DNA of 64,000 nt, taken from contig CBDASK010000003.1 of NCBI GenBank assembly GCA_965199495.1, positions 2,880,001 to 2,944,000 of the forward strand. Reading direction: 5' to 3'. Shown one piece after another: positions 1 to 61,534 of the stretch (position 1 is its first letter; each line of letters starts with the position of its first letter). Source of the stretch: Abditibacterium sp. (GTDB lineage Bacteria; Armatimonadota; Abditibacteriia; Abditibacteriales; Abditibacteriaceae). The notes beneath the pieces were generated by a model that made no database searches, had not been told where the DNA came from, and saw only the letters and a list, made by a program, of their open reading frames with translations. The position numbers and the translations under genes were made by a program.

Positions 1-283
1 TCACTTCGGCAGTCGCCGTGAGCGCGCCGATTTTCACGTTGGCAAAATTCGCGACGCCGCCCGTCGTGGCACGCCGTTGCCCGTCAACGGTAACGATGCC
101 ATCCACGACTGCGCCCGCCGAATCGCGCAGTTGAACCGTCACGTTGGCTTTGGTCACGACAACCGGCGTCGGCGTGGGAACCAAACTGCCTGGGCCAGAC
201 GATGAGCCACCGCCACAGCCCGCCAGCGCAAGCGCGCCGATGAATGCAGCCACGGCGAGGAGATGAGGAGTTGATATTTTCAT
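1..283 (-). CDS. Lipoprotein, 5' part only (runs off window)
   Basis: ATG at 283 gives MKISTPHLLAVAAFIGALALAGCGGGSS..., with lipobox LAGC and a PTPTP linker; frame open to window edge. Confidence 0.8.
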   Translation of the reverse strand, partial: MKISTPHLLAVAAFIGALALAGCGGGSSSGPGSLVPTPTPVVVTKANVTVQLRDSAGAVVDGIVTVDGQRRATTGGVANFANVKIGALTATAEV

Positions 284-333
284 GATTTGAAGTTTTAGAT
301 TTAATTCAAGCGGAAAAGCGGGGCTGACGCACA

Positions 334-559
334 GGGCGAAAGCATTATAAATTGAGCGTGAAAAGTTGAGTTGTCACTCCGAGAGTAAGGAGCTTGCGAC
401 TGGAACCGAGGAATCTGTCGCTCTCGCGGCAGCGAAAGTAAGAACCTCTTCCGATTTCCGCTGGCGCGGGGCCGTAAGATTCCTCGGTTCCAGTCGCAAG
501 CTCCTTACTCTCGGAATGACAACTCAACTTTTCACGCTCAATTTATAATGCTTTCGCCC
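334..559. repeat. Long palindromic element, family A (83-bp arms, 60-bp spacer)
   Basis: 334-416 is the reverse complement of 477-559 with 1 mismatch; core GTCA(C/T)TCCGAG...CGAGGAATC / GATTCCTCG...CTCGGAATGAC. Confidence 0.9.
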
Positions 560-608
560 CGCTTGCCTAATGCGTTGTCAGAACGAACTATCTGCGTCGA
601 ACATGAAC

Positions 609-3600
609 TTACGAATTGCCCGCCGAGGGCGCCTTCGTCAAAGCGCTCGCCGCGCTACTCGGCGTCACCGAGATCGCGATAGTCGCGGGCGCCGACGGAC
701 GGCCCTGCGCGTCAATGGCGACATAGCGCACGTTTTCCACGCCCGTCCAACCGGCGCGACTGCGATAGAACATTTTCCAGGCGCCGTCGGAATCAAGGCG
801 CAGTTCGCCGGTTCCGTTGGTCGGGCCGCCGACGCGCTTGAAAGTCAACTCGTCGCCATCGGCGTCGGAGCCGCTCACGGGAACAGCGATTTCGACGCCC
901 GAAGCGGCAGTGGCGCTGACATCGCCCGCGACGGGCGGACGATTACGCACGTAAATCGTGATCGTCGCGATGTTCGATTGCGCGCCCTGCGCGTCAATCG
1001 CCACGAACTGCACGCTGTCGGCGCCGCCGTCGGGTTGTCGCAAGTTTTGCACGCGCAGTTTCCATTGCCCATCGGCGGCATCAAGCGCGATTTCGCTGGA
1101 GCCAAACTTCGCGGGCGTCACCATGCGAAACGAGAGCGCGTCGCCATCGGCATCGCTGGCCATCAAAGTTTTGCTGACAATTTCGCCGCGCACGCTCGCG
1201 ACCGAACTGCTGATCGCGACCGGCGCGCGGTTGCCGGGTTTGTCGGCGCCGACGCTGATTTTAATTTTCGCCGTCTGCGAGCGTCCGCCGAAACTATCGA
1301 ACGCGAGTACGTCCACTTCATCGTCGCCGGTCGCGCCTTTGTAAGGGGTGTAAAACAGTTTCCAAACGCCGTCTTCGCGGCGCACATCGGCCAAGCCGCG
1401 TTGGGGGCTGTTGGAACGATTGATGCGCAATTCGTCGCCATCGGCGTCGCTGGCAAACAGCGCGACCGAGGCGGTTTGCCCGCTCTGCACGCGCAAATTG
1501 CCGTCGGCCACCAATGGGGCGCTATTGGCGATGACGGTCGAGGCCGTGCCGCTGGCGATGTTTCCGGCCTCATCGCTCGCGGTCACTTCGACCGAAATCG
1601 TATCGCCCCGGTCGCCGTTGCCCGGCTGGCTCAAATCGAGCGTCGCGCCGTCGTTATCCAAAATGCGGCGCCCGTTGCGCCAGACATACGAATAAGTCAG
1701 CGCCGCATCGGGCGCGAAACCACTGGCGTTGGGCGTCACGGTCAGCGCATCGCGGGTGCGCGCTGGATCGGGCGTAAGTGTCGGCTCGACTTTGCCCAAA
1801 CCGGCGCTTTCGAGTGCCACAATCGTCAGGCGGCGCGGCGTGCCATCGGAAACGAATTGATATTGCCCGCCGCTTTTCATCGCGGTCGAGGCGCCGGTGA
1901 CGGTATCGAGCAAGCTCAAGCGCAAGTTGCGCATCGAAGCGTCGAATTTGTCCCATTGCAGCGTGACTGTTTCGCCGGGCGCCGTGCCATCCACAATCGC
2001 CGACCAACTGGCGGTTTTGGTTTGCGTCAACTGCGCTTGCGTCGCATAAGATTCGGCCAATCCACTACCCGCCGCGCTCGCGCCGTTGGCGTCGGCGCCC
2101 TCGAATCGCAGCGAAACCACGCGCGCCGCCGCCGGAGGCTTGGCGATATTGGGCGCGTCCGAAACGCCGAAACGCCCAGCGATGTCGCGAGTATTCTTGC
2201 CGCTCGCGGTCAAATTCAGGCTCCAACCGCTCGTTTTGGTCAGCGCACTGGTGCGCGCGTTCGCCGTGGCTGCTGTTGTCGGGTCGAAGACCAGAGCCAC
2301 GCCGCGCTCTGGCCCGGCGAAAATGAAATAGCCCTCAAACGGATTCAATTTTCCATCGCCAACATCGGCGCGCACATAACCGCCTTCGGGCAGCCAGCGC
2401 CAGAGGCCGGGCGCGACCCAACCGCGACTTTGCGCCGTCGCCAGCGAAACCGGCGCGAACCCGCCGTTGCGCACCTGAATCGCCGAAGCCGCCATCGTGC
2501 GGTTAAACGGCACGCCGATCTGGTTCCAGCCACCAATGAGCGGCACTTCGGTGGCTTTGTCGGCGGGCGGCGGGCTGGCCTGCACTTGCGTCGAGTAACC
2601 GCTCGCATCCACGCCCAACCAGTAGCCACGCCCCGGCGCAAGGGGCGCCGAAATGTTGGGATAAATCTCGTAACTGCCCGCGCCGATGCCAAACACCAGC
2701 GAACCGTTTTGCAAAGTCGCGGGCGATAAATTGGGCCGGTAGCGCGCCAGTTTCAACGCGTCGGGCGCCAAATTGAGCGCCGCCGCTTCGTCGGTTTTAA
2801 TCGGGAAACCGGGTAAGGAAACCATGCGAAGCTGGCTTTGCCCGGCGGGCGCCGTGAAGTTCAGCGTCTGCAAACTCGACGGCACCTGCAACAAAAACCC
2901 AACCGAGCGCGCCGAATTGCCGGGCGCCAGAAACGCCGTATTGCGACGCAAAGTTACGCCACCAAAAGTAAACGCGGTTTGCACGCGCGGCCCCGACGAA
3001 TAGGGCGCCGAAGCCTCCCAGACGCCGCGCGTCACCGGCACATTTTGGGTCGCGCTACCGCTCAGTTGCAAAAGCCCGTTTTGCCCGCCCAACGTGCCGC
3101 CATAAAAACTCGAAGTCGAGTTGACGTTGCCGACGACGCCCGCCGGAAAATAGCTCGTCGCCTCGGCCTGTCCGTAGCGGGCCTTGACAGTCAAAAGCGC
3201 GCGGTCGGGCGTGCCGAGCGAGCTAAAGCCCGCGCCAAAACGCGCCTCGCCGGGAAACTGCGGGTCGGCGCCGAAATTCAACACGTTATTTTGCAACAAC
3301 TCCACCGACAAATTGGAAACGTCGCGCCCGGTTTCATCGAAAACCGCCACGCTGCCCAAGCCGCCCGATGCGGTCTCGCTGCCCGCGTTATCGGTCGCAA
3401 ACGCTTGCGCGAAACCGCTAAAACCCGGACGCGTATCGCCGGTTGCGGGCGCGGGCGAAGGCAAAAGCGCCAAATACAATTTCTGGCCGCTCGTCACGTT
3501 GGAATCGAGCGCGTATTGCGCGCGCACCCAATCGCTGAACGAACGTCCCTCGACAGTCGGGACAACGCCCGCAGCCAAACCCTGCAACTCGGACACGGAA

Positions 3601-5048: not shown

Positions 5049-5087
5049 AAGGGGAAAGGATAAAGGATGAGGGATGAAGGATAAAGG
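5049..5087. repeat. Heptamer tandem repeat (GGATAAA/GGATGAG/GGATGAA), single arm
   Basis: aaggggaaaggataaaggatgagggatgaaggataaagg abutting the mreD start. Confidence 0.7.
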
Positions 5088-5109: not shown

Positions 5110-5604
5110 ATGAACCGTTGTTATTTTGCCGCGCTCGGACTTTTAATCGCTGGATGCGCGCGACCTCAAGCGCCCGCCGTGGCTGTTGCGCCGACGGCAA
5201 AGCCAGTTCCAACCGCGACGCCGATGACGGTTGCGGTGCCCGCGATGCCAATTCAGGTCACGCCGACACCCGATTCCGCAGAGGCCGCAAGACAAGCCGT
5301 TGTATTGCGCGAATTGGCGCGCTTGCGCACGGCCTCACCCGACCAAGATTTCGCGACCGCGTGGGCAAACAAAGATACGCGATTTATCGGCGTAAATGGT
5401 TTTTCCTTGAATTTGCCCGGCGTGCCAAAAGAAAGAATCCGCGCGGCAATCATGCGCGGCCAAGTCAATCCCGTCGAAGGCACAGGCGATGCTATGGACT
5501 CAGCAGGAGTGGAATTATATGAGGTCGCCACCAAATATGCGACGCGTTACAATCAGCTTTTGCTACAAAAATTGGACGAGCAGAAAAACATTAAAGTGGA
5601 TTAA
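5110..5604 (+). CDS. Hypothetical lipoprotein
   Basis: MNRCYFAALGLLIAGC lipobox and Pro/Thr linker; the upstream ORF extension is translated repeat. Confidence 0.7.
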   Translation: MNRCYFAALGLLIAGCARPQAPAVAVAPTAKPVPTATPMTVAVPAMPIQVTPTPDSAEAARQAVVLRELARLRTASPDQDFATAWANKDTRFIGVNGFSLNLPGVPKERIRAAIMRGQVNPVEGTGDAMDSAGVELYEVATKYATRYNQLLLQKLDEQKNIKVD

Positions 5605-7915: not shown

Positions 7916-8308
7916 TTAATCCGCCGGAGAATCGCGATGGCGCGCGACAATTTTTTCTTCGTAATTCAAAATCGCTTCGAGGTTGGCCAAACGCTCGTCC
8001 ATTTCTCGGATTGTTTTCGTTTCCGAAACCGAAGCAGCGCCCCGAATTTCGCCTTCGGAACCGCTATTCCACGCCCAGAACAACGCGCCAGCCACGCCGA
8101 CGCCCATCGCGACCAACGCGGATATCGGATTGACAAGCGCCAAAAAGTAGGTGATGGCGCACAGCGCGCCGATGCCCAAAATTCGCCACGTAGATTTGGC
8201 GCGTTGACGTTGACGCGCCGCCGAACGCTCGATCACTTCCAATTGCTGTGCGGGCGTCAGGTGCAGATGATTCCGCAATAAATTTAACGTGTGTTCGTGT
8301 TGGTTCAT
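7916..8308 (-). CDS. Small membrane protein with a C-terminal coiled coil (weakly PspB-like)
   Basis: ATG 8308 with GGAG upstream; two TM helices then EMDERLANLEAIL; the longer ORF call overlaps maf. Confidence 0.65.
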   Translation of the reverse strand: MNQHEHTLNLLRNHLHLTPAQQLEVIERSAARQRQRAKSTWRILGIGALCAITYFLALVNPISALVAMGVGVAGALFWAWNSGSEGEIRGAASVSETKTIREMDERLANLEAILNYEEKIVARHRDSPAD

Positions 8309-8363: not shown

Positions 8364-8948
8364 TCAATTCCAACTTGCTTCGATAGGGACTCCAAACTCG
8401 CGCAGCATCGCCGCCAATCGAAAGAGTGGCAAACCCACGACATTCCAGTAATCGCCCTCAATTTTGGTGACGAGCAACGCGCCTTTGCCCTGCGCGCCAT
8501 AGGAGCCAGCTTTATCCAACGGCTCGCCGGTTTTGACATAAGCCGCGATGAATTCATCGGAGAAATCGCCGAAAGTTACGCGAGTCATTTCATGCGCGCT
8601 TTCGATGCGCGCGCCCTGTTGTAGGCAAACACCCGAATAAACCCGATGAGTTTTACCGCGCAAACGCCGCAGCATCGCGGCGGCGTGGCTGCTATCGGCG
8701 GGCTTGCCCAAAATTTCGTTGTCAATTACTACAACCGTGTCGGCGGCGATAATCAAATCGTCGCTTTTAACTTTAATGGCGCCCGCTTTCAGGCGCGCCA
8801 ATCGTTCCACAAAGGCGCCGGGATTGCGGCCATCTTCGAGTGTCGGCGCGGGTTCATCGGCGGGCGAAGGACAAACGGTGAAATCTAAACCGAGCGCGCT
8901 CAAAAGTTGCGAGCGGCGCGGTGAAGCCGAGGCGAGGATAATTTTCAT
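8364..8948 (-). CDS. maf: Maf-family nucleoside triphosphate pyrophosphatase
   Basis: IILASASPRR, ADTVV, ILGKP, EPLDKAGSYG, NVVGLP. Confidence 0.96.
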   Translation of the reverse strand: MKIILASASPRRSQLLSALGLDFTVCPSPADEPAPTLEDGRNPGAFVERLARLKAGAIKVKSDDLIIAADTVVVIDNEILGKPADSSHAAAMLRRLRGKTHRVYSGVCLQQGARIESAHEMTRVTFGDFSDEFIAAYVKTGEPLDKAGSYGAQGKGALLVTKIEGDYWNVVGLPLFRLAAMLREFGVPIEASWN

Positions 8949-9326: not shown

Positions 9327-10433
9327 TCACTCGTCTTCCAACAACTGTTTGAGTTGGGCCAGCGAGCGGCGCATCAAACGCGAGATGTGCATTTGCGAAA
9401 CGTTCATCTGGCGCGCGATTTCGGATTGGGAATGGCCATCGAAAAAGCTCAACTCCAAAACGCGACGCTCCTGCGCTTGCAATTTTTCGAGGGCGGCTTG
9501 CAACGCGGCGTGTTCTTCGTAGGCGTGCAAGTTCGGATCGGGCGCGCCGACCGATTCGGCGATGGTGGCGCTCTCTTCGCCATAAAAACGGTCGTCAATC
9601 GAAATCGGATCAATGGCGCTGCCCAGTTCCATTGCTTCGACGACCTGCTCGACCTCGATTTTTAGGCTGAACGCGATTTCGGCGTAGGTTGGCGAGCGGT
9701 CGAGTTGTTGGGTGAGTTCTTCGATGCGAATTTGCAGCGCGGTGTGCAACTCCTGCAAACCGCGCGGCACGCGCATGCCGGAAACTTTGTCGCGAAAATA
9801 ACGCCGAATTTCGCCCGAAATCGTGGGAATCGCGAACGTCGAAAACTTGACGCCACGCGCCGGATCGTAGCCATCCAACGCGTAAATCAGGCCGAGCATA
9901 CCGACTTGCATTACATCTTCAAACAGCTCACCTCGATCCATGAAACGGCGCGCCAAAAACATCACCATGCTGCGATTCATCAGAATCAAGCGCTCGCGCA
10001 AACGCGGATCGTTGGTCGCTTTCCACCGCACGAAAATCCGCTCGAACTCGGCGTAATCTTCCTCTTTGGCATCGCTCTTGACCGGCTGTTCCGCGCTCAC
10101 CGACGGCTCATCTTCCGCATCTATATCTTCGGTTTCCTCGGTTTCTTCTTCCTCTTCGGTCAGTCCCAAATAGTTTGTCGTGACCGGTTCGGTTTCAGCA
10201 GCCACGGCGTCCGTTTCGTCCGGCGCCATCGTTAAATCTAAAACCTTTTCGCTCTCGATAATTTCTTCGTTTGCTTCGAGTTCTTGCGCGTCTTGCAAAT
10301 CGTAATTTTCCGCTTGCAGAGCCGATTCCTGTTCTCTGCGTTCGCGCAGGGCGTCTTCGTGTGCGCGTGCCGAAGCCGACAATTTCGCATCGAAATCGCT
10401 GCTGTGAATGGGGCGCGGAAGGGGAATATTCAC
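9327..10433 (-). CDS. RNA polymerase sigma factor, SigB/SigF family, with long acidic N-terminus (start uncertain)
   Basis: FEDVMQVGMLGLIYA, FSTFAIPTISGEIRRYFRDK, SQSEIARQMNVSQMHISRL. Confidence 0.93.
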   Translation of the reverse strand: MNIPLPRPIHSSDFDAKLSASARAHEDALRERREQESALQAENYDLQDAQELEANEEIIESEKVLDLTMAPDETDAVAAETEPVTTNYLGLTEEEEETEETEDIDAEDEPSVSAEQPVKSDAKEEDYAEFERIFVRWKATNDPRLRERLILMNRSMVMFLARRFMDRGELFEDVMQVGMLGLIYALDGYDPARGVKFSTFAIPTISGEIRRYFRDKVSGMRVPRGLQELHTALQIRIEELTQQLDRSPTYAEIAFSLKIEVEQVVEAMELGSAIDPISIDDRFYGEESATIAESVGAPDPNLHAYEEHAALQAALEKLQAQERRVLELSFFDGHSQSEIARQMNVSQMHISRLMRRSLAQLKQLLEDE

Positions 10434-10457: not shown

Positions 10458-10973
10458 CTAACGATTAACGGATGGGCGGCGCGCGCCAATCGGGCCGCCG
10501 TGGCTGTTGGGCACGCGCTTGAACATGCGAACCACGGTATCGCGGGTCGGGCCGCTTTGATGATCCACTTCGTCCATCAAAGAACGAATCAACAGCAGGC
10601 CCAAACCGCCTTCGGGCAGTTCGTCGGCCCAGTTGGCGCTGATCACGGGCAACGCGTCCTGCAAGTGGCCTTGATCCACGATTTCAATCCAAAGTCCCTG
10701 CGAGGAAGTTTTGATGACAATCGAAATCGTCGGCTGCTCGCCCGGCGCGGGCCGCAATGGCGCGTGTTGAATCGCGTTATTAATCGCTTCGGTGACGGCG
10801 AGTTTGATGTCTTCGACGGCGTCAACGGGAAACGGCAGACGCGACGCGACGCCCGCCACGGTGAGGCGCGCAACGCGCACCCATTCGCTGCTGGAAGGAA
10901 TGGTCAGCTCGATACGCGAAATTTCGCCCTGCTCATCGGCGGCGGAAATGGAATCGGAAGTGGAGTCGCTCAT
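10458..10973 (-). CDS. rsbW: Anti-sigma factor Ser kinase (RsbW/SpoIIAB family)
   Basis: DIKLAVTEAINNAIQH, DQG, EGGLGLLLIRSLMDEV. Confidence 0.9.
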   Translation of the reverse strand: MSDSTSDSISAADEQGEISRIELTIPSSSEWVRVARLTVAGVASRLPFPVDAVEDIKLAVTEAINNAIQHAPLRPAPGEQPTISIVIKTSSQGLWIEIVDQGHLQDALPVISANWADELPEGGLGLLLIRSLMDEVDHQSGPTRDTVVRMFKRVPNSHGGPIGARRPSVNR

Positions 10974-11480: not shown

Positions 11481-12806
11481 TTATTCCCTCTCCGAATCTC
11501 GCCGCTCGCGCATGCGGCGCGCGATTTTGGCTTCGACTCCGTTTTCGGTCGGCTCATAAAATGGGGGATGCTCGAACTCGGCGGGCAGATACTCCTGCGC
11601 GACGTAGTTTTGCGCGTAATCGTGCGGATACAAATAGCCTTTTCCGGCGCCGGTTTCTTTGGCGCCTTTGAGCGCAGTCGAGCGCAAATGCGGCGGCACG
11701 CGAATCGGCGCGCCCTGCGCGACGGCGGCTTTGGCGCGTTGCATCCCAAGATAAGCCGCGTTCGATTTGGGCGCGCACGCCAGATACGTCGTCGCGTGCG
11801 CGAGCGGAATCGCGGCTTCGGGCATTCCGATTTTCTCCACCGCGTTCAATGCAGCCACGGCGACGACCAAGCCCTGCGGATCGGCGTTGCCTACGTCTTC
11901 GCTGGCCGCGATAACCAAGCGTCGCGCCACGAACATCGGGTCTTCGCCGCCTTCGAGCATCCGCATCATCCAATATAAGGCCGCGTCGGGGTCGCTGCCT
12001 CGGATGGATTTGATATACGCCGAAATCGTGTCGTAATGCGCGTCACCGCGCAAGTCGTAATTCAAGGCGCGTTTGCCCAACGCCGACTGCGCGTTTTCCA
12101 AAGTTAAGCGTCCATCGCGCGCCAAATCCGCCGCCATCTCCAAAGCGCCCAGCGCCAGACGCGCATCGCCTGCCGCGCCCCACGCGATATAATCGAGCGC
12201 CTCGTCATCGGCGCGCAAATTCAACGATTGCAAACCGCGTTCGTCGGATAACGCGCGTTTCAATAATTCCAACAAATCGCTGTCTTGGAGCGGTTCAAAA
12301 GCGAACATTCGACAGCGCGACAAGAGCGGCCCGTTCAATGCGGCGAGCGGATTTTCGGTTGTGGCGCCCAAAAGCGTCAACGTGCCATCTTCGACGTGCG
12401 GCAAAAACGCATCTTGTTGCGCGCGATTGAAGCGGTGAATTTCGTCCACGAACAACAGCGTACGCTGCGGGATTTTGCGCCGCGTGCGGGCGGCTTCGAC
12501 GATCTTGCGCACATCAGCCACGCCGCCGGTGATGGCCGAAAATTCCTCGAAATGCGATTGAGTTAAGGTCGCCAGCAAACGCGCGAGCGTGGTTTTGCCG
12601 ACACCGGCGGGGCCATAAAATATCGCCGACGGCACGCGATCCGACTGCGCGGCGCGCCGTAATGGCGCATCGGGGCCGATCAAATGCCCTTGCCCGACGA
12701 ATTCATCGAAGTTTCGCGGGCGAAGTCGCGCGGCGAGCGGCGCGTTATCGGGCGGCGTGGCTGGTGTTGCGCTCAGGTTGATTTCGGCGTCATCGAATAA
12801 GTTCAT
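11481..12806 (-). CDS. rarA: Replication-associated recombination protein A
   Basis: PLAARLRP, GPAGVGKTT, DEIHRFNRAQQD, ISAYIKSIRGSDPDA, YLYPHDY. Confidence 0.96.
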   Translation of the reverse strand: MNLFDDAEINLSATPATPPDNAPLAARLRPRNFDEFVGQGHLIGPDAPLRRAAQSDRVPSAIFYGPAGVGKTTLARLLATLTQSHFEEFSAITGGVADVRKIVEAARTRRKIPQRTLLFVDEIHRFNRAQQDAFLPHVEDGTLTLLGATTENPLAALNGPLLSRCRMFAFEPLQDSDLLELLKRALSDERGLQSLNLRADDEALDYIAWGAAGDARLALGALEMAADLARDGRLTLENAQSALGKRALNYDLRGDAHYDTISAYIKSIRGSDPDAALYWMMRMLEGGEDPMFVARRLVIAASEDVGNADPQGLVVAVAALNAVEKIGMPEAAIPLAHATTYLACAPKSNAAYLGMQRAKAAVAQGAPIRVPPHLRSTALKGAKETGAGKGYLYPHDYAQNYVAQEYLPAEFEHPPFYEPTENGVEAKIARRMRERRDSERE

Positions 12807-19340: not shown

Positions 19341-19343
19341 AAT

Positions 19344-46125: not shown

Positions 46126-49068
46126 ATGAATTGGAACGGCGAAAACACGCCTGAATCTGCACTGTTGGAGGCCGCATCCGCCGCGAAACTACGCGATTTA
46201 AACGCGCCGCTCGACTGGCCCGCAATCGAGCGACGCGCGCGCATTTTGGCGTCGAATTCGTATGCTCGTTCCGTCGAATTGGCGGCGGCAGCGCGTGCAT
46301 TAGATGCGGTCGCGCAGGGCGCGCCCGGCGGCGGCTCCATCGCGCGCGAGCGCGGCGTGTGGGCGGCGGCGGCTTTCGCGGCGGACGGCAATTTTCCCTC
46401 GGCTCACGTCGTGACTTTGCGCACCTTCCCGCGCGCCCGCGCCGCCGATGCAGCCACGGCGACGCTGCTCTGCGTTTTGGCGCCTTCGCTGCGCTTCGGT
46501 TTGCGCGCCCAAACGCCGCTGGCGGGCGCGCTTGACGCGTTGTTCGCGGGCGAAAATTGCGATGCTTTGGCGGTTTGGGACGCCATCGAAAACACGGTTT
46601 TCGCGCCCGAACTATGGCAACTGGCGCGGCGTGGCTTGTGTGCAATGAGCGAAGCGGCGACGATCAAAACACTGCGCGGCGCGGTTTTGCCGGACGGATT
46701 TACGTCGAATTTGAGCGCGCAGATTCCCACGCTGTTGCCGCCGCAATTACAAGCCGTTCGGGGCGGATTGTTGGACGGTGAAAACGCTCTCGTCGCCTTG
46801 CCTCCGGGGACGGGCAAAACTTTGCTGGGTGAACTGTTTCTGGCGAGCGCGCTGGGAAATGGAGCGGGATTGGCGGTTTTTTTAGTGCCCTATGTTTCGC
46901 TGGGGCGCGGCGTCATTGAGGCGTTGCGCGCGCATTTGCCCGCCGCAATTCCGGTTCATCGCTGGCTGGGCGGGCAGGGCGATGGCGGCGAGAAATGTCG
47001 CGCGGACGAGCGGCCCGAATTTGCGGTCGCCACGCCCGAACGTTTCGACGCGATGCTGCGCGCGCGGCCCGAATTGTGGGCGCAGTTGCGCGGCGTTGTC
47101 GTGGACGAAGCGCACACGCTGGGCGAAGGCGCGCGTGGCGCGCGCGTGGAAGGTCTGATCGCGCGGTTGCGCGCGCAGCAAAATCGCGGGGCGCAAACGC
47201 GTTTGCTCTTGCTTTCGGCGGCGTTGGACGAGCGCGAAAAGTTGGAGCAATGGGCGGGCGTCACGCGCGTTTTTGCGTCGAATTGGACACCGACGGCGCG
47301 GCGTCTGGCGTTCTGGCGGCAAGACGGAAAAATGGAATGGCACGCCGAATTGGCCGATGGACAAACGTGCGCGCTGGGCGAGTTGGAGCAGCGTTGGCCG
47401 CACCATATCAACAATGGTAGCGACAATTGGGCGCGCGTGCGGCGCTTCGAACCTTTGGCGTGGGAGAATGTGGCCGCCTTGGCGAAGCAACTCAACGAAG
47501 AGCGCGGCGGCGCGATTTTGTGTTTGTGTTCGACGCGGCGCGCCACGCGCGAAATCGCGGGCGCGCTGGGACGATTGTTTCCCGAAACGCTCGAAATTGG
47601 CGGCGCCCTCGCGCGTTGCATCGAAAGCATCGAAGCGCGCCATCGCACGCTGTTGCCGCTTGCGAAATTGTTGCGCAAACGCGTGGCGTGGCACAACAGT
47701 TCGCTGCCCGCCGAAGTGCGCAATGCTCTGGAAGAAGCGATTGCCGATGGACAGATCGCTGCCGTGGCTGCGACTTCGACGCTGGCCGAAGGCGTGGATT
47801 TGCCGTTCGCCCAGACCATCGTCGCCGATTGGCTCAAATGGAGCGACAACGGCCAAATCCCGCTTTCGAGCGCGCTTTTTCGCAACATCGCCGGACGTTG
47901 CGGACGCGCCGGACGCTTCACCGAGGGCGACACTCTGGTTTTCGATAATCCGCTTGGCCCGGCGCGATTCACCGCGCCGACTGTGCGCCGCGATGTTCAA
48001 AATCGCGCGTTCGTCGGCGCGGTTTTGGACGAGCCGCGCAGCGCGTTTGCGACCGGCGAAACCGAGGGCACCGCGCGCACGCAAACGCGGGCCGCGCTCG
48101 AATCGCAGTTGCTCGCGCTGTGGAGCGGACATCCGCAACTCGATGATGAAGCCACAGCGCGCCTGTTTTACGCGGCGCGTTTCGATGACGATTTCGCGAA
48201 TCGCATCGCGCAAATTCGCGCGAATTTCGAGCGCGACGATCTGATTCAAGACGGCGTTTTGAGCGCGCGCGGCGCGGCCATCGCGCGCACCGATTGGTCG
48301 CCCGCCAGCGCGCTACGTTTGCTGGGCGCGCTCGAAGCCTTACCGTCGCAAAACTTCGACGGCGCACGCGGCGCGGCGCGTTTGAACGCGTATTTGTGGC
48401 GCGCGTTGGGCGCATTGCCCGAAGCGGGCGGCGAAATCGAGCGGTTTTTTCGCTCGCGCTCGCGCTTGTTTGTGCGGCCCGAATTATTGGAAGAAACCGG
48501 GCGCGCGTGGCTAAGTGGAACGGCGCCCGAAGCGATTTTTGCGAGTTTGCCGCGCGCGCAAAGTTTGGCGGGCATCGGCGCGTGGCTCGAACGCGACGAA
48601 GCGCCCGCCAATGCCGAAACCGTCGCGCCCGATTGGAGCGGCGAGTTTGATCGTTATTTGGACTTCCAACGCGCCGGAATGGAAACATGGACGCCCTATT
48701 TATGGCGCGCGGCCCATGCCCTCGCGCCGCTCGCCGGGCCAAACGCGTCGCGTGTGAAATGGAGTGTTTGGGCGCGCCGATGGGAACTGGGCGTGGACAG
48801 CGCGTGGGCCGCGCGCGCTTTAGCGTTGGGCGCGCCCGGCACGCGCACGACGTGCGCTTTGGTCGGTCGTCATTGGCCTTTTCAGTCGGCACAACCCGCG
48901 CACGACGCATTGGCTCTGTCGCCGCTCCGCGACGAAAGCGGACGCGAAAAAGCGCGCTTGGCGTTGGACGACGCTCTGCGCGAAGCGGGCGGCGCCTATT
49001 GTTTCGCCGGACGCAACGTGCTGGCGCTACGCGATTGGGTGTGGGCGCGCGCGGGTTTGACGAAGTAA
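46126..49068 (+). CDS. Ski2/Hel308-like DEAH-box helicase
   Basis: PPGTGKT, ATPERFD, DEAH, LSA, ATSTLAEGVDLP, NIAGRCGRAG. Confidence 0.88.
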   Translation: MNWNGENTPESALLEAASAAKLRDLNAPLDWPAIERRARILASNSYARSVELAAAARALDAVAQGAPGGGSIARERGVWAAAAFAADGNFPSAHVVTLRTFPRARAADAATATLLCVLAPSLRFGLRAQTPLAGALDALFAGENCDALAVWDAIENTVFAPELWQLARRGLCAMSEAATIKTLRGAVLPDGFTSNLSAQIPTLLPPQLQAVRGGLLDGENALVALPPGTGKTLLGELFLASALGNGAGLAVFLVPYVSLGRGVIEALRAHLPAAIPVHRWLGGQGDGGEKCRADERPEFAVATPERFDAMLRARPELWAQLRGVVVDEAHTLGEGARGARVEGLIARLRAQQNRGAQTRLLLLSAALDEREKLEQWAGVTRVFASNWTPTARRLAFWRQDGKMEWHAELADGQTCALGELEQRWPHHINNGSDNWARVRRFEPLAWENVAALAKQLNEERGGAILCLCSTRRATREIAGALGRLFPETLEIGGALARCIESIEARHRTLLPLAKLLRKRVAWHNSSLPAEVRNALEEAIADGQIAAVAATSTLAEGVDLPFAQTIVADWLKWSDNGQIPLSSALFRNIAGRCGRAGRFTEGDTLVFDNPLGPARFTAPTVRRDVQNRAFVGAVLDEPRSAFATGETEGTARTQTRAALESQLLALWSGHPQLDDEATARLFYAARFDDDFANRIAQIRANFERDDLIQDGVLSARGAAIARTDWSPASALRLLGALEALPSQNFDGARGAARLNAYLWRALGALPEAGGEIERFFRSRSRLFVRPELLEETGRAWLSGTAPEAIFASLPRAQSLAGIGAWLERDEAPANAETVAPDWSGEFDRYLDFQRAGMETWTPYLWRAAHALAPLAGPNASRVKWSVWARRWELGVDSAWAARALALGAPGTRTTCALVGRHWPFQSAQPAHDALALSPLRDESGREKARLALDDALREAGGAYCFAGRNVLALRDWVWARAGLTK

Positions 49069-49287: not shown

Positions 49288-49983
49288 ATGAAATACGCCG
49301 CCGTCTTTCTCACCCTCGCTCTGGCGTGCGCGTTCTATGCAGCCACGGCGTCGCCGTGGCTGCTACGCGTTGCGTTCGCTTCGGGATTTTTGGCGTTCGG
49401 CGGCGTCGGTCTGGCCTACGCGTTTATCGGCCCGCGCGCGTTTTTCAAGCGCAAAAACGGCACTTTGCTCGCCCTAAGTTATTTGATTTATGCGCCTTAT
49501 TATCTGCTTAACGCGCTGAGTTTGTGGAGTTTTCGGCGGGGCGCCCGCGAAAACGCGTTCGACGAAATCGCGCTCGGCGTTTATCTGGGTTGCCGTTTGA
49601 GCGCACGCGGCCAAGCCGAAGTCACGCATTTGAAAATCGCGCGCGTTTTAGATTTGACCGGCGAATTTGCCGAAACGCCATTTCTGCGCGCGCTCGATTA
49701 TCTTTGCATCCCTCTGCTCGATACGCGCGCACCGACTTTAGAACAATTGCGCGAAGGCGCGGATTGGATCGCACAAAGCGATGTCCCAATTTACGTTCAT
49801 TGCGCGCTCGGTCACGGACGCAGCGCGACATTTGTCGCGGCGTATTTGCTGTTGACGAAGCGCGCCAAAAATGCCGATGACGCGGTTGCGCAAATTCAAA
49901 AACTGCGTCCGCGTGTTGGTTTGACTTGCGAGCAATCGGCGGTTACGCAACTTTACGCTAACAGTCTCCACAAAGAATCGTAA
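49288..49983 (+). CDS. Membrane-anchored dual-specificity/PTP-family phosphatase
   Basis: N-terminal TMs; VHCALGHGRSA (CX5R). Confidence 0.88.
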   Translation: MKYAAVFLTLALACAFYAATASPWLLRVAFASGFLAFGGVGLAYAFIGPRAFFKRKNGTLLALSYLIYAPYYLLNALSLWSFRRGARENAFDEIALGVYLGCRLSARGQAEVTHLKIARVLDLTGEFAETPFLRALDYLCIPLLDTRAPTLEQLREGADWIAQSDVPIYVHCALGHGRSATFVAAYLLLTKRAKNADDAVAQIQKLRPRVGLTCEQSAVTQLYANSLHKES

Positions 49984-50921
49984 ATCCCGTCCAAATTGGC
50001 GCCTGCCGCAACGAGCGTAATTTCCAGCAATAGCGCCAGATTAAAACCGACGAAGAACAGTTTGAGAAACGCTAACGGATAGGCGCGCTCACGCCAAATC
50101 GCAGCATCGAGCAAAAAGAATAGGGCGCCGCACGCCAACAGCGGAATTAGATAGGGCTTGAACGGCAGCCACGTCGCCAGCCAAACTTCCGTCGTCAACA
50201 GCGCGGCGATTAATAATTTGGCGCGCGTCGCACCCAGCCACGCCGCCGTTGTGAGGCGTCCAGCGCGCGAGTCTGGTTCGATGTCCATGATTTGACCGAA
50301 CAAATGCGAGTGCATCGCGAAGACGAAACCGAACGCGTAAATCGGCCAAAGCGAAAACGCGCCGCGCGTCCAATCGCTCAAGATGAAAACCGATAAATAG
50401 CCGCATTGAAACAGCAAATCGCAAATCGGGAAATCTTTGGCGCCGCCATTTTTGCGATTATAAAGTGCGCTGCCCAAAACCAAAACCGCGAACCAAAGCA
50501 ACGCTTTAACGCCCCAAATCGCGGTAAACAACGCGACGAACGGGATTTGAATCAGCCAGATTCGCCACGGCAACTCGAACAATTGGTCGGGCGTCGGGCG
50601 CGCGCCAAACAGAAACGAATCTTTGCGCGGATTGAGCCGGTCGGTCTCGGCGTCCGACAAATCGTTGCCCGCGTAAATCAGCATTCCGAGCGGGAGCGTA
50701 ACGTAAATCAATCCCAACCAGAACGCGCCGTTATGAACATCGAAGCGCCCGGCGTGCGGCATTAAGTAAAACCAGATCGTCGTGAGCCAGAAGCCGGGGC
50801 GCGACGCTTTGAGCGTAAAAACCAATTCGCTTGCCAAACTCGCGCGCGGCGTGGCTGCTATGCGCGGCAGTGTGTTGGTGCGCGTGGGAGCAAACTCGTG
50901 TTGAGCGGGAACTGTCGCCAT
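49953..50921 (-). CDS. UbiA-family prenyltransferase
   Basis: SRPGFW, NDLSDAETDRLNPRK, DIEPDSRAG..TTA; multi-TM. Confidence 0.85.
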   Translation of the reverse strand: MATVPAQHEFAPTRTNTLPRIAATPRASLASELVFTLKASRPGFWLTTIWFYLMPHAGRFDVHNGAFWLGLIYVTLPLGMLIYAGNDLSDAETDRLNPRKDSFLFGARPTPDQLFELPWRIWLIQIPFVALFTAIWGVKALLWFAVLVLGSALYNRKNGGAKDFPICDLLFQCGYLSVFILSDWTRGAFSLWPIYAFGFVFAMHSHLFGQIMDIEPDSRAGRLTTAAWLGATRAKLLIAALLTTEVWLATWLPFKPYLIPLLACGALFFLLDAAIWRERAYPLAFLKLFFVGFNLALLLEITLVAAGANLDGIYDSLWRLLA

Positions 50922-54653: not shown

Positions 54654-55037
54654 ATGAAACCAACTTTTTGTTGTCTGTCTTCTGTCTTGTTGACCGGCGT
54701 GGCTGTGGCGTTGCCCGCGCGTGCCGCGACGCCCCAATTTCAGCTCAGTGCCGTTGACGCCCAAACGTTTCATCTCGTCGTTTACCCGTCCGGCCAGCCT
54801 GCGCCGCCGCCGAGTCCGTTCGTCGTCGAAGACGCGAAGTGGCCGCAAGCGGTCACCGCAACTAACGCGATGGGTTCGTCGGTGCGCGTGGCGGGCGGCG
54901 CGCTCACTCTCGATGCGCGCGGCAACTGGCAACTCAAAGCGCCCAATAATTTGACGCTGAGCGGCGAAAACCGTGGTTTATGCGGGCAACGCGGTGAAGG
55001 TGAAGTTTTAAAAGCGGTTGAGAAATTGATGCGATAG
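54654..55037 (+). CDS. Short secreted protein, possibly a truncated remnant
   Basis: Signal peptide ending ARA-A; 127 aa. Confidence 0.45.
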   Translation: MKPTFCCLSSVLLTGVAVALPARAATPQFQLSAVDAQTFHLVVYPSGQPAPPPSPFVVEDAKWPQAVTATNAMGSSVRVAGGALTLDARGNWQLKAPNNLTLSGENRGLCGQRGEGEVLKAVEKLMR

Positions 55038-55761: not shown

Positions 55762-58700
55762 ATGTTTCCCCGCTCCCGTTTCGCCCTCCGTTTCGCCGCC
55801 ATTTGTGGCGGCGCTTTGCTGGTTGCGCCCGTTTCTCATGCGGCGCCCACCAAAGCCACGCCCGCCGTGGCTGCTGTTCCAACCTTGAAGCTCGACGGTT
55901 GGAACTATGAAATGGCCGACGAGCCATTGGAACCACGTTGGAGTTGGCGCGCGACGGTGAAAAGCCAGAGCGATGGCGCCGGTCGCGTGGTGTTCGGCTG
56001 GAAAGATGCGCGCAACTTCGCTTTGTTGCAGGTCGGGCGCGCCGCGACCGAACTGTGGCAAATCAAAGATGGCGCCGCGCGCCGCGTTGCTTTTGGCGCG
56101 AGCGTTGCGCCAAACCAAAGCGTGACGCTGCAAGTCGAGGGCAAACGCGCGCGCGTTTTGCGCGATAATGCGATTGTCGCGCAGACCGAAATGGAATTGC
56201 CCGGTAGCGGATTCGGCACTGCGACGCAGGGCACAATAACGTGGGATGCGGGCGATGTGCAGCCGACGGCGCCGGTTGTTTTTCGCGATGATTTCATGCG
56301 TGCTGAGGGGCCAGACGATGCCGAGATTCCGTCGGAGTGGGCCGTGCAGGGCAATTGGAAAACGTCGGGTTCGCTGGGGCCGAAATCCGACGCGGCGCTC
56401 AACCCGAATCCGTTCGTGTTTCGCGCCAGTTATGCGGCCAATAACGCTAAAAATGACGAGGCCGTCGCGCGCGCCGGACATTGGTTTTGGAGCGATTACG
56501 CGTTGACGGCTTCGGTGCGCGCCAACGATTCTAATGGCAACGGCCCATTGACGGCGGCGTTGCAGGCGTTTGAAGGCACGAACCAAACCGGCGTCGTCGC
56601 CGAAATTGATTTTCGCGCCAATGTCGCGCGCATCAAGTTGGGCGACAAAGTTCTGGCCCAGAGCGCGCCCTTCGATACCGAACCCGGCCAGTGGCACCGG
56701 GTGAGATTTGAACCCGGCCCCGGCACGGCGCGCCTTTTGATTGACGGCATCGAGCGCGTCAGCGCCAAAGACGTGACGCTGGCGCAGGGCGAAATCGGGT
56801 TGCGCGCCAAAACAAACGGCGCCAATTCCGTTGATTTCGACGACGTGTGGGCCGCGCCCGTGGCCGATGATAAAGGCTGGGGCGAAGGGCAGTTGCCCGA
56901 ACGGTTTCAGAAAGACCGGCTGATGAAAAATTGGGCGAGCGCGGCGGCGGCGTGGAAGCGCGGCGCCGACGGGACGTGGTGGAATACCGGCGATTTCTTT
57001 GGCGATGCGCAGGTTTCGTTGCCCGTACCCGATTTGGCGGATGGCGCCGGAATGAAGATTTCGCTGGGCGCCAAAGACGACGCAGCCACGGCGACCACGC
57101 AGTTCATTGTGACGCGCGCAGGAGACAGTATTTTGCTCGGTTTCGAGGGCAATCCGCAACTCAAAATGCCCCTCGCGCAGGCGACGGGCAAACCGATTAT
57201 GGTGAAAAGCACGCCGCAAATGAATAAAGGGAAAAGCGAAGTCATCTCGGAAGCGTTTGTGGATGGCAACTCGTTTGGCCGCCACACTGATGCGCGCGTG
57301 ATGGGCGGCGTAAAGATCTGCGTGACTCCGCTCAAAAATGGCGTGCCCCTCGGAGCGGTTGCGCCCGAACCCATCTCGCTGACATCGGCGACGTTCGAGC
57401 GCGATGGCACCGCGATTATCGGCGTGAATATCACGCCGGTAACCGAGCAAATCGCGCGCGAAAACGGCTTGCCGCAGGCGGTTGGCGCCATCGTGGATAA
57501 CGTCGAGGGCGGCAGTCCGGCGCGCGCGGCGGGCGTGCAAAACGGCGATGTCGTCATCGGCGTCAACGGCCAGAAAGTCGTGGACGTGGATTCGATGAAA
57601 GCCGCCGTTGGCGCGGTCAAGCCGGGCGATAAAGTTACGATTGACTTATTGCGCGCGCGCCGCGACGGATCGGGTATTGATTGGGAAAACGCCCTCGCCA
57701 CGACCGATGCGGTTTTGGATTATAACTTCACCACGGCGCCGACCGATTGGCGCGCGGCGCGCGGGCGCTGGGAAGTCGCCGAGCGTTGGACGTGTTCGCC
57801 GCAGTGGAGCTTTTTTAGCGGCAGCAACGCCGATTCGCCGCTTCTGTGGAGCCGCTTTCAAACCAAGGGCGATTGGACGCTCGAAGCCTATCTCGCCACG
57901 CCGATGGATTTGACGCGCGGCGAGCGTTCGCCGACCGATTTGAACATCAGCGTCGGTGGCGACGGACGCGATTTGGCGAGCGGTTACTCGTTCGGTTTCG
58001 CGACCGACGCGCGCGCGCACAACACGATCTGGCGCGGCGATGGCGTCGCGCTGCAAAAAGATTTCGTGTTGCCGCCGGGCGTGGGTGAAACTCATCAGGA
58101 TTGGTTTTATGTGCGTCTGGAAAAACGGCAAATCGGCAAAAGCGTCCACTTCAAGTGGAGCGTCAACGGGCGCGAAATCGCCGATTATACCGACGATAAT
58201 CCATTGTCAGACGGCGGTCATCTGGCGTTTTGGAGCAAGAATGGCGCGATTTCGATGGCGCGCATGCGGCTGTGGAATTCGGGTTTGAGCGCGCCCAAAG
58301 CCGCGCCGTTTGCGCCCTTGCCCGGTGTGCGGCAAATCGCCAATCCGTTGGGAAATTGGGGCACGCGCGGCGCCGGTGATGACGCTTCGGCGGTTGTGTT
58401 GCCGATAGCAGCCACGGCGCCGGATAAGGGCGCGGTGAAAATCGTCAATCCGCAAAGCGGCGGCGACTGGACGACGTATATCACGCGCACGCCGTTCGCG
58501 GCGGCGGCGCATCCGACATTGGGTTGGGAATATAAAATGGATGCGAATGTAAAGCTCAATCTCTACGCCAAAATCGCGGGCGCGTGGCGCGAAATCACTT
58601 GGAGCGGTGGCAAAAGCGATGGTAACGACACGAAATCGCTGGGCCATTTCGACGCCGTGGCTGATGGGCAGTGGCACCGCGCCAGTTTCGATTTGTTGAG

Positions 58701-60183: not shown

Positions 60184-60189
60184 CGAAGC

Positions 60190-60293
60190 CATCCGTAGAG
60201 ACGCCGATTTATCGCGTCTAAAACGTAAAGACTCCCGTGTAGCTCGCGGTAATTTTACGTTTTAGACGCGATAAATCGGCGTCTCTACGGATG
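60190..60293. repeat. GTAG-tagged REP doublet, family B (40-bp arms)
   Basis: 60190-60229 is the reverse complement of 60254-60293. Confidence 0.9.
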
Positions 60294-60316
60294 TCATTCA
60301 GCCTATTAATTAAAAA

Positions 60317-61534
60317 ATGTTTTTTTTATCTCCGCGCGAGCAACGCCATTGGAGCGACCGGCGCATTCTGATTTTAGTCGCGTTTTCGGCGCTTATCGTC
60401 ACTGTGATCTGGCATCTGCCGCAGGAAGCCGAATTTCTGTCGCACCGCACCGGCGAACTGTTTCTGGCGCTCACGCTCGCGATGGCGACGGTTTATATTT
60501 TGCGGCCCGTCGTGCGTTTTTTCGAGCGCTATTTTGGCTCGACGCACAAGGGCAAAATGTGGGCGACTTTAGCGACATTTGCCCTCGTTTGTGTGGCGCT
60601 TTACCTGATGTTTCTGGTCGGATTCAAGCCGGTGCAACGCGATGTCAGCGAACTGGTGAATGGGTTCTGGCCCCATGACCCCGCCGCGCGCAAGGCTCTC
60701 ATTGAACAGTGGCAACGTTCGATTAATCTGGCGCTCGAACCCTACCGCAGCTATTTGCCCGCCGACATGAGCGCCGATCCAGCCTACATTCGAGAACAGC
60801 TCAAGCCCATCACCCAAGGTTTGAGTCATTGGCTGTCCGGGCAAAAAGCGCATCTGGGCTTTATCGTCGAATTATTATTGATCCCCGTGCTGGCGTTCTA
60901 TTTTCTGGCCGAGGGGCCAGAAATTCGCCGCGAAGCGCGTCTGTTTGTGCCCGCCAGTTGGCGCGCGCCGATTTCGCGTATGGCGCACCATTTCGATTTC
61001 GTGTTGGACGGCTACGTGCGCGGCCAATTGTGGATGTGCATCATCGCGTGGGTTTTGGTGACGATTACCCTACTCATTCTGGGCGTGCCGCACGCCGTCA
61101 CGCTGGGATTAATCGCCGGAATCACGCGCGCCGTCCCGGTTATCGGGCCGCTACTTGGCGCGATTCCGCTTTTAATCGTCTGTTTGTTCTATACCAAAAG
61201 CATGCAAACAACCGGCATTTTGCTGGGCGCTTTTATGCTGATGCACTTGCTGGAATCGAAGATTTTGCTGCCCAAAATCGTCGGACATCACGTCGATTTA
61301 CATCCGGTTTCGGTCATCATCGCGCTCTTAATCGGACTCGAATTTTTCGGTTTCATCGGCGTGTTTCTGGCCGTCCCGATTGCGGCGGTCATCAAAATTA
61401 TGCTGGTCGAATATCAAACGTCGCAAGCGCAGAAGTTGGCTTTGTCTGGCGCCGTGGCTGTTGATGGGGGCGCACCAGAAGTTATCGAAATCGAGAAAGT
61501 CGGGGCGGACGATGAAAGAAATTCCGAGATTTAA
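60317..61534 (+). CDS. AI-2E family transporter
   Basis: GYVRGQL, VPVIGP, PKIVG..LHP, GVFLAVP. Confidence 0.9.
   Translation: MFFLSPREQRHWSDRRILILVAFSALIVTVIWHLPQEAEFLSHRTGELFLALTLAMATVYILRPVVRFFERYFGSTHKGKMWATLATFALVCVALYLMFLVGFKPVQRDVSELVNGFWPHDPAARKALIEQWQRSINLALEPYRSYLPADMSADPAYIREQLKPITQGLSHWLSGQKAHLGFIVELLLIPVLAFYFLAEGPEIRREARLFVPASWRAPISRMAHHFDFVLDGYVRGQLWMCIIAWVLVTITLLILGVPHAVTLGLIAGITRAVPVIGPLLGAIPLLIVCLFYTKSMQTTGILLGAFMLMHLLESKILLPKIVGHHVDLHPVSVIIALLIGLEFFGFIGVFLAVPIAAVIKIMLVEYQTSQAQKLALSGAVAVDGGAPEVIEIEKVGADDERNSEI

Follow-up and report, generated by a model that had tools for sequence, protein, structure and literature searches.

The chromosome of the soil bacterium Abditibacterium sp. 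carries, in the 64,000-nucleotide stretch C3:2880001-2944000 (the window), many copies of one short DNA word, the 12-mer CGCCGTGGCTGC with its 8-bp core CGTGGCTG, which raises the question of how such a word comes to be written throughout a genome and what might read it. The initial annotation had counted 18 exact 12-mers and about 46 cores and had suggested an uptake signal. All 18 copies are recovered at the positions and on the strands assigned to them (eight plus and ten minus; mean 0.03 and maximum 1 in 100 dinucleotide-preserving shuffles) and the core is counted 46 times (shuffle mean 2.43, maximum 8). The enrichment is not confined to the window. The 4.81 Mb source genome (G000), which consists of a 4.72 Mb chromosome (C3) and two small contigs (C1 and C2; 24.7 and 64.6 kb), holds 690 copies of CGCCGTGGCTGC, 344 on one strand and 346 on the other, making the word the top-ranked 10-mer and 12-mer by frequency. 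For the core, an order-3 Markov model predicts 234 chromosomal copies and 3,083 are observed (observed/expected ratio, O/E, of 13), the highest z-score among all 8-mers. The word is real, acts at the level of DNA, is specific to one lineage and is actively maintained.

Its specificity is sharp. A scan of single substitutions yields the consensus CG-V-CGTGGCT-G-C, in which changes at positions 1, 2 and 4-10 leave 0-26 copies per variant compared with 690 of the exact form; position 3 is occupied by C (690), G (357) or A (276) and seldom by T (27), and positions 11 and 12 are looser. The word is thus asymmetric and non-palindromic, with about 9-12 specified positions. Among the papers listed for Abditibacterium, and for uptake-sequence and HIP terms combined with the phylum names, none describes it, and the motif strings matched only primers and unrelated papers; in these listings no published account of the word, or of a comparable one in the phylum, was found.

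A crude gene call made for the analysis (3,605 genes, 85.6% coding) places 262 of the 690 12-mers in a sense frame, spelt GCC-GTG-GCT-GC and read as Ala-Val-Ala-Ala, and 282 in an antisense frame read as Ala-Ala-Thr-Ala, two of the strand-dependent readings that had been noted from the window. Together these frames account for 79% of the copies; the others are intergenic (62), on a gene edge (2) or in other frames (82). The 46 copies in the window divide into 24 sense, 18 antisense and four outside the called genes. The codons GCT and GCA, which the initial annotation had judged uncommon, indeed make up only 10% and 6% of Ala codons. Its proposal that copies favour signal peptides and linkers was followed only as position relative to the gene start, with 98 of the 626 coding 12-mers lying within the first tenth of genes.

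The gathering of copies in two frames that encode Ala-rich peptides is what would be expected if the word were a by-product of protein composition or of codon or dicodon bias, with no signal at the DNA level. However, in 20 synonymous shuffles that keep every protein sequence and the codon usage of each gene the enrichment does not vanish: 289 and 337 12-mers are seen on the two strands compared with means of 3.5 and 4.4, an approximately 80-fold excess, and the core is in 10-11-fold excess. Relative to codon-order shuffles the excess of the 12-mer is 300-400-fold. These shuffles already refute the by-product explanation, the probability of which is negligible. Of the 1,550 AVA tripeptides, 630 are spelt GCC-GTG-GCT, compared with 1.2% from codon usage, so that the rare codon GCT appears there at 33 times the expected rate, and GCC-ACG-GCG spells 523 of the 1,255 ATA tripeptides compared with 7.2%; overall, the codons of the word are used at 41% of all chromosomal AVA and ATA tripeptides. 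The sense and antisense forms are about equally abundant, 236 core copies are intergenic, and in 10 of the 13 members of the genus the word does not rise above the control level. These results support the word being a genome-wide signal at the DNA level.

The lack of strand polarity seen in the window extends to the replichores, with 1,593 of 3,083 cores (51.7%, p = 0.07) and 350 of 690 12-mers co-oriented with them. This negative is meaningful because a KOPS-like word of the same genome, GGGCAGGG, shows that the genome has replichores: 205 of its 225 copies (91%) are co-oriented, and the orientation switches near 1.98 and 4.335 Mb. The KOPS role in G000 is filled by GGGCAGGG, and the core shows no such switch at the origin or terminus, which excludes polarity of the Chi or KOPS type for the word. 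Although GC skew in this genome is very weak, the polarity of GGGCAGGG defines its replichores. Among 199 7-mers of similar frequency, CGTGGCT has the most even spacing, with a variance-to-mean ratio in 10 kb bins of 0.80 compared with a median of 1.26, and all gaps are at most 10 kb.

The word marks resident chromosomal DNA. The small contigs carry 0.08-0.09 copies per kb, which is the background level, compared with 0.65 per kb on the chromosome. By a composition-independent measure, 1,153 of 2,805 chromosomal AVA and ATA sites are written with the codons of the word and none of 33 on C1 and C2 together. Within the chromosome, the least codon-typical tenth of genes has 27% of these sites written compared with 41-45% elsewhere, in line with the depletion in recently acquired islands that had been proposed as a check, and the 20 kb windows poorest in the word cluster at 0.42-0.52, 1.14-1.26 and 4.22-4.26 Mb.

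Comparison with related genomes shows how narrowly the word is distributed. Among 41 relatives the 12-mer is abundant only in G000 (690 copies), G011 (510) and G004 (154), and the core ACGTGGCTG, counted in the 31 genomes of the class, is abundant only in G004 (2,717), G000 (557) and G011 (506), the other 28 being at the level of a reversed-word control. The same word also ranks first among the 8-mers of 400 kb sampled from G011. A sample of G004 of the same size keeps the ACGTGGCTG core within different and longer flanks (consensus TAGGACGTGGCTGGTGTC), which makes this form a flank dialect on a conserved core; G000 and G011 have one form in common. The G004 sample also contains 47 '-+' hairpin doublets among 269 core copies (approximately 35% of copies), 21 of them at the modal spacing of 33 bp; the doublets are mostly intergenic and the single coding copies fall, from the gene-call analysis, in the same two frames as in G000. 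A comparable word of their own was not found in 120-140 kb samples of three motif-poor members of the genus (G012, G006 and G002), in which the top z-score is about 8 compared with 31 for an equal-sized sample of G000. The small contigs of G004 (L103-L111) are dominated by a repeat of approximately 110 copies containing CCTAGGGTGCTATTCCGG, which may be a CRISPR array or a tandem repeat.

Orthologous positions indicate how copies arise and persist. At window position 39351 the word is present in G000 and in its closest relative L003, and the other seven of the eight aligned Abditibacterium loci spell a similar G-V/I-A-A peptide in other ways at unchanged length; since these sites differ in spelling but not in length, the word arises by point substitution and not by insertion. 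In 204 kb aligned between G000 and G011 at 84.8% identity, 94 sites of the 10-mer are shared (94 of the 144 in G000), 50 are present only in G000 and 22 only in G011, compared with 28% of random and 25% of flanking 10-mers being identical between the two. Wobble positions are 0.83-0.89 identical inside the word and 0.69-0.78 in its flanks. This sharing and the wobble identity imply that the word is held by a restoring force and yet is turning over.

Word-writing recurs in the Abditibacteriaceae, with the word changing between lineages. In samples of 77-400 kb from 13 genomes, G020 (L205-L211) and G022 (L228-L232) have the hyper-abundant palindrome TCGAGTACTCGA, about half of the G020 copies and 82% of the G022 copies lying inside genes, and G014 (L218-L222) has the hyper-abundant palindrome GCAAGTACTTGC. 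In G017 (L198-L204) there is a mostly intergenic, terminator-like 24 bp palindrome flanked by A and T runs at approximately 0.5 per kb, and no hyper-abundant word was found in the samples of G013 and G016. The G000 chromosome shows extreme avoidance of CTAG (94 copies), GTAC (463) and AGTACT (19), and sister genera are hyper-rich in palindromes centred on AGTACT.

The arrangement of neighbouring copies reveals a further property. Within 80 bp, 117 pairs of copies in G000 are inverted compared with nine direct; only 14 of the inverted pairs are intergenic, some of them between convergent genes. In the pair-correlation function, the O/E of same-orientation pairs is 0.08 below 25 bp, approximately 0.3 at 100-400 bp, 0.44 at 500-600 bp, 0.65 at 600-800 bp and 0.8 at about 1 kb, reaching 1.0 at 1.5 kb and beyond, while that of opposite-orientation pairs is 0.8-1.1 throughout except for a 2.7-fold hairpin peak below 25 bp. 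Three control words have flat pair correlations. The exclusion holds within one gene, between genes on the same strand, between genes on opposite strands and with intergenic copies; for different genes on opposite strands at 300-600 bp there are seven same-orientation and 36 opposite-orientation pairs. Deletion between direct repeats is not the main cause, because longer shared identity does not explain the exclusion: the mean identical run is 9.18 in close pairs compared with 9.47 in random pairs, with only the 8 bp core in common in 44% and 40%, and control 8-mers show no exclusion. The G011 sample has the same trend, although it is not independent of G000 as many sites are common to both. 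Orientation-specific exclusion out to approximately 1 kb is a new property of the word and places a new quantitative constraint on any mechanism. If a nearby copy on the same strand is redundant and one on the opposite strand is not, the reader should be strand-specific or directional.

The reading preferred here, although tentatively and at somewhat less than an even chance, is that CG(C/G/A)CGTGGCTGC serves as a lineage-specific 'self' tag, of the uptake or retention type, on the DNA of one Abditibacterium subclade. Its writing is observed: point substitutions in resident chromosomal DNA, mostly silent, at Ala-Val-Ala and Ala-Thr-Ala sites. The copies would be kept at a high and even density by a process that recognizes the sequence and is linked to homologous recombination, most likely because tagged conspecific DNA is preferentially taken up, or survives better, in natural transformation; molecular drive would then spread the tag, as it does the DNA uptake sequences (DUS) of Neisseriaceae and the uptake signal sequences (USS) of Pasteurellaceae. 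From the spacing of the copies, the tag would be read on one strand or by a machine moving in one direction. The competence genes that the initial annotation had suggested looking for are present in G000, namely ComEC, a ComEA-like protein, DprA, at least six secretins and eight T2SSE ATPases, together with a complete type IV pilus locus at C3:861-877 kb (L176) that encodes PilB, PilT, PilC, PilD, four pilin-like genes and a 1,366-residue protein. The 618-residue pilin-like protein of this locus has diverged much faster than its neighbours, with 57% identity to G011 compared with 78-86% for them. A search with ComP_DUS (PF16732) gave no match and is uninformative, as its control likewise matched in no genome.

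Several observations weigh against the self-tag reading. The competence genes are permissive only, an uptake bias being a prediction from sequence, and all four pilin-like genes also occur in each of the three motif-poor genomes tested (G012, G006 and G009), so that none of them discriminates and no receptor emerges by presence or absence. Biased repair, or any other process within the cell that acts on DNA of long residence, would account equally well for the absence from plasmids and the graded amelioration. The core under-uses intergenic DNA (7.7% of copies, while 14.4% of the DNA is non-coding and 92% of G000 cores lie within genes), and for DUS and USS the available text of PMC1939737 describes an excess in non-coding DNA. 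The orientation-specific exclusion is not predicted by a simple surface receptor, since uptake in Haemophilus influenzae is independent of USS orientation according to the same portion of PMC1939737, and in the 400 kb sample of G004 the exclusion is not seen beyond the doublets, in small numbers. The interpretation in the initial annotation is supported in part, as regards the DNA-level, genome-wide, non-polar and DUS/USS-like traits of the word; the exclusion is a property that orientation-independent surface uptake would not produce.

The exclusion is, by contrast, what a directional reader with diminishing returns predicts, which suggests a Chi-like regulatory word: a DNA-end-processing helicase-nuclease would act intracellularly on linear DNA, whether broken or incoming, and read one of its strands, so that tagged DNA would be spared and recombined and untagged DNA degraded. 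Same-orientation O/E values of 0.08-0.44 below 600 bp, with opposite-orientation values near 1.0, are independent of gene, coding sense and identity length, as such a reader would require. A candidate reader is a clade-specific protein of 1,421 residues (G000:C3:4111368-4115630; L189:5365-9630, minus strand) that combines a PD-(D/E)XK nuclease at its N-terminus with an SF1 helicase of the Dna2/Upf1 type at its C-terminus, present in three of three motif-rich and none of ten motif-poor genomes of the genus. The reverse pattern is shown by an AddB-like protein (ten of ten motif-poor, none of three motif-rich), which adjoins an AddA-like helicase in G009. However, the phyletic pattern of the nuclease-helicase rests on one clade and thus on one evolutionary event, and none of the 14 genomes from the family's other genera has the AddB-like protein, so that its presence and not its absence is the derived state. 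The G011 copy of the nuclease-helicase lacks its N-terminal part and is a mere remnant (residues 680-1421, with a frame break), and yet the word is abundant in that genome (510 copies); G016 has a homologue (45%) but no hyper-abundant word, G017 has one (42%) but a different, palindromic word, and in G141, which has a split homologue, the one word seen is G-rich and weak (15 copies in 120 kb). Distant homologues occur in 22 of 401 genomes of the phylum and are also named from Chloroflexota (approximately 40% identity). No cognate RecBCD or AddAB enzyme is apparent, with RecC found in none of the 13 genus genomes and the AddB-like protein, with the query used, in none of the three motif-rich ones. 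Described Chi sites are polar, span 5-8 nucleotides and show a far smaller excess, whereas the word lacks replichore polarity. Two further ideas were rejected: the nuclease-helicase is not a recognizable defence protein, having helicase-domain matches only (NCBIfam far below curated cut-offs, PADLOC with partial model coverage), and the topoisomerase IB gene adjoining it is present in five of five genomes tested and is not clade-specific. The Chi-like reading is considered unlikely, although well above negligible.

A process that modifies or repairs the word, such as a methyltransferase with biased mismatch correction, could also drive or maintain it in the manner of HIP1, with a role in transformation being optional. 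The AGTACT palindromes of the sister genera (TCGAGTACTCGA in G020 and G022, GCAAGTACTTGC in G014), many of them genic, resemble cyanobacterial HIP1, which is recognized by two methylases according to the available part of PMC13756078. The avoidance of GTAC and CTAG in G000 would fit restriction-modification pressure, and the background level of one-off variants is what active correction would predict. Nevertheless, the G000 word is not palindromic and its 9-12 specified positions exceed the length of methyltransferase sites; C5 methyltransferases occur in eight of 13 genus genomes, motif-poor ones included, and Vsr exceeds the family cut-off only in G004, on a 4.7 kb contig, with 24.5 bits against a cut-off of 27 bits in G000 and no match in G011, which argues against repair of the VSP type. 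A repair bias also does not predict orientation-specific exclusion over 1 kb. This explanation is judged distinctly improbable. Much less probable still is that the copies are remnants of a mobile REP/REPIN-like hairpin element that owed its spread to a transposase of the RAYT type. The doublets that G004 carries, mostly intergenic and comprising about 35% of its cores, have inner stems that vary by paired changes (in examples judged by eye), and Y1 transposase genes are present in 12 of the 13 genus genomes. That distribution is not clade-specific, however, and one G004 and six G000 Y1_Tnp loci inspected have no flanking doublets. The genic location of 92% of G000 cores, in register with orthologues and without insertions, largely refutes this origin for G000, where only 14 intergenic hairpins occur and a separate GTAG-initiated palindromic element of approximately 96 bp fits REPINs better. 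The probability that remains beyond the self-tag and Chi-like readings falls to repair- or modification-driven and other causes.

The self-tag and directional readings could be combined, in that the word might serve strand-specifically as a 'self' mark for a directional machine inside the cell, possibly the clade-specific Dna2-like nuclease-helicase, that would decide whether incoming or broken DNA is retained, and be one of a family-wide set of fast-evolving words; this is offered as speculation with a small but real chance of being correct. If so, the word would be a non-polar, hyper-abundant functional analogue of Chi acting as an uptake or retention tag, and the AGTACT palindromes, the 24 bp terminator-like palindrome and the CGTGGCTG words would together point to an evolvable, so far unrecognized system of DNA self-recognition outside Proteobacteria and Cyanobacteria. 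Sequence-based preference for self DNA is established in only two proteobacterial families, according to the available text of PMC12616744, and cyanobacterial HIP1 is a recent candidate uptake signal in the accessible portions of PMC13756078 and 10.1101/2024.09.10.611283. A self tag in Abditibacterium would raise the number of independent cases to three or four, the new one coming from a little-studied phylum of which members are in culture, and would show such tags to be a general bacterial strategy. The two dialects of the one core, the near relatives without the word and the different words of sister genera amount to a natural experiment for finding the reader by comparative genomics, and the word could raise transformation efficiency for Abditibacteriota genetics.

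Copies of the word in the window, with strand and coding context
Feature	Position	Strand	Context
Exact 12-mer	246..257	-	Sense, ORF extending past window start; AVAA
Exact 12-mer	2262..2273	+	Antisense, Big_9/cadherin-like gene 609-4481(-); AATA
Core 8-mer (CGCCGTGGCTGT)	5178..5185	+	Sense, ORF 5074-5604; AVAV
Core 8-mer (CGGCGTGGCTGG)	8089..8096	-	Outside called genes
Core 8-mer (CGGCGTGGCTGC)	8684..8691	+	Antisense, ORF 8364-8948(-); minor frame (SSHA)
Exact 12-mer	10198..10209	-	Sense, sigma-70 gene 9327-10433(-); AVAA
Core 8-mer	10499..10506	+	Antisense, ORF 10458-10973(-); minor frame
Exact 12-mer	11851..11862	-	Sense, MgsA AAA+ gene 11481-12806(-); AVAA
Core 8-mer (CGGCGTGGCTGA)	12515..12522	-	Sense, MgsA gene; GVAD
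Core 8-mer (CGGCGTGGCTGG)	12756..12763	+	Antisense, MgsA gene; PATP
Exact 12-mer	13531..13542	+	Antisense, TerD gene 12919-14136(-); AATA
Core 8-mer (CGGCGTGGCTGC)	15891..15898	+	Antisense, ORF 15636-16391(-); AATP
Exact 12-mer	17622..17633	-	Sense, TerD gene 16979-18277(-); AVAA
Core 8-mer (TGTCGTGGCTGG)	19463..19470	-	Within protein-kinase ORF 19344-20870(-), absent from gene call
Exact 12-mer	20815..20826	+	Antisense, PP2C gene 20776-22275(-); AATA
Exact 12-mer	21836..21847	-	Sense, PP2C gene; AVAA
Core 8-mer (CGGCGTGGCTGC)	22129..22136	+	Antisense, PP2C gene; AATP
Core 8-mer (CGCCGTGGCTGG)	23461..23468	+	Antisense, VWA/TerY gene 23183-24232(-); minor frame
Core 8-mer	23531..23538	-	Sense, VWA/TerY gene; minor frame (PAWL)
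Core 8-mer (CGACGTGGCTGC)	25297..25304	-	Sense, ORF 25121-25903(-); DVAA
Core 8-mer (CCTCGTGGCTGC)	28236..28243	-	Sense, VWA gene 27046-28377(-); LVAA
Core 8-mer (CGGCGTGGCTGG)	29705..29712	-	Outside called genes
Core 8-mer	32294..32301	+	Sense, UPF0182 gene 31963-34290(+); minor frame (AWL)
Exact 12-mer	32745..32756	+	Sense, UPF0182 gene; AVAA; non-motif spelling in relative L004
Core 8-mer (CGCCGTGGCTGT)	33941..33948	-	Antisense, UPF0182 gene; TATA
Core 8-mer (GCGCGTGGCTGA)	36122..36129	+	Sense, amidase (GatA-type) gene 35001-36590
Exact 12-mer	36640..36651	+	Sense, ORF 36611-36943; AVAA; common to close relative L003
Core 8-mer	37910..37917	+	Sense, GatB gene 37006-38487; minor frame (AWL)
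Core 8-mer (CGGCGTGGCTGC)	39354..39361	+	Sense, ORF 39217-39717; GVAA; word also in L003 (1/8 aligned loci)
Core 8-mer	39882..39889	-	Antisense, redoxin gene 39779-41008; PATP
Exact 12-mer	41787..41798	-	Antisense, redoxin gene 41694-42950; AATA; close to N-terminus
Exact 12-mer	43285..43296	+	Within GH18 ORF 42782-43999(+), absent from gene call
Core 8-mer (CGCCGTGGCTGT)	45648..45655	+	Antisense, GHMP-kinase gene 44892-46049(-); TATA
Exact 12-mer	46450..46461	-	Antisense, DEAD-helicase gene 46105-49068; AATA
Core 8-mer (TGCCGTGGCTGC)	47763..47770	+	Sense, DEAD-helicase gene; AVAA
Inverted pair, two exact 12-mers 1 base apart	49339..49363	both	Perfect 11-bp-stem hairpin; fold -39 kcal/mol, z -3.97
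Core 8-mer (CGACGTGGCTGC)	50166..50173	-	Sense, ORF 49953-50921(-); minor frame
Core 8-mer	50235..50242	-	Sense, ORF 49953-50921(-); minor frame
Core 8-mer (CGGCGTGGCTGC)	50850..50857	+	Antisense, ORF 49953-50921(-); AATP
Core 8-mer	54698..54705	+	Sense, ORF 54654-55037; GVAV
Exact 12-mer	55863..55874	+	Sense, PDZ-protein gene 55591-58863; AVAA
Exact 12-mer	57082..57093	-	Antisense, PDZ-protein gene; AATA
Exact 12-mer	58408..58419	-	Antisense, PDZ-protein gene; AATA
Core 8-mer (CGCCGTGGCTGA)	58656..58663	+	Sense, PDZ-protein gene; AVAD
Core 8-mer (CGCCGTGGCTGT)	61453..61460	+	Sense, AI-2E transporter gene 60317-61534; AVAV

The inverted pair in the window sits inside a dual-specificity phosphatase gene, where the hydrophobic N-terminus is encoded, and so is not a terminator. 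As to a terminator role in general, 14 of the 117 inverted pairs in G000 are intergenic, and intergenic doublets are numerous in G004. Between the 3' side of the DEAD-box helicase gene and the phosphatase gene there is also a long inverted repeat (49140-49225; arms of approximately 30 bp), unrelated to the word. The intergenic palindromic element of approximately 96 bp, whose arms begin with GTAGAGAC, is found at 12820-12915, 22218-22312 and 60195-60288 and also at 23169-23176, as a partial copy that starts at about 23095; GTAGAGAC has 294 copies genome-wide (O/E 11.9), and the element is REPIN/MITE-like, with the GTAG start typical of REPs, and distinct from the CGTGGCTG word. Positions 12919-31743 hold a cluster of the tellurite-resistance type, all on the minus strand, with two TerD genes, TerC/DUF475, VWA/TerY-like genes, a PP2C phosphatase and a protein kinase. 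Approximately 105 kb upstream of the window (G000:C3:2766481-2775004), 131 repeats form a CRISPR-like array.

Compared with known systems, the word shares with REP/REPIN elements only the hairpin doublets of G004 with their modal spacing of 33 bp; the G000 copies are single, genic and arise by substitution, and a separate REPIN-like element exists in the same genome. With HIP1 (GCGATCGC) it has in common that a hyper-abundant conserved word runs through coding DNA and that sister genera have palindromes, but it is itself non-palindromic and no clade-specific Vsr or C5 methyltransferase was found. Like Chi, it is over-represented, asymmetric and lineage-specific, and a directional reader would explain its orientation-specific spacing; unlike Chi, it is non-polar, has 10-12 specified positions instead of 5-8 and shows a much larger excess.

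The closest known kind is the DUS and USS, most of whose sequence-level traits are matched, a dialect on a conserved core included; the likeness carries no claim of membership. The available portions of PMC12616744 and PMC1939737 describe the DUS of Neisseriaceae as a 12-mer with eight dialects and the receptor ComP, and the USS of Pasteurellaceae as a 9-mer core with flanks; both are non-palindromic, non-polar, evenly spaced and present on both strands, with many genic copies in favoured frames, inner-core dialects that follow subclades, hairpin-forming inverted pairs and absence from foreign DNA. The present word differs in belonging to another phylum (Abditibacteriota/Armatimonadota), in its unrelated sequence, in its under-use of intergenic DNA, in the background level of its one-off variants and in its same-orientation exclusion over approximately 1 kb, to which those portions of the two papers contain nothing similar. 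It resembles them in being a short non-palindromic word of hundreds to thousands of copies, equally on both strands, non-polar round the chromosome and more evenly spaced than chance, with many genic copies in favoured frames, subclade dialects around a conserved inner core, hairpin-forming inverted pairs and absence from the small contigs.

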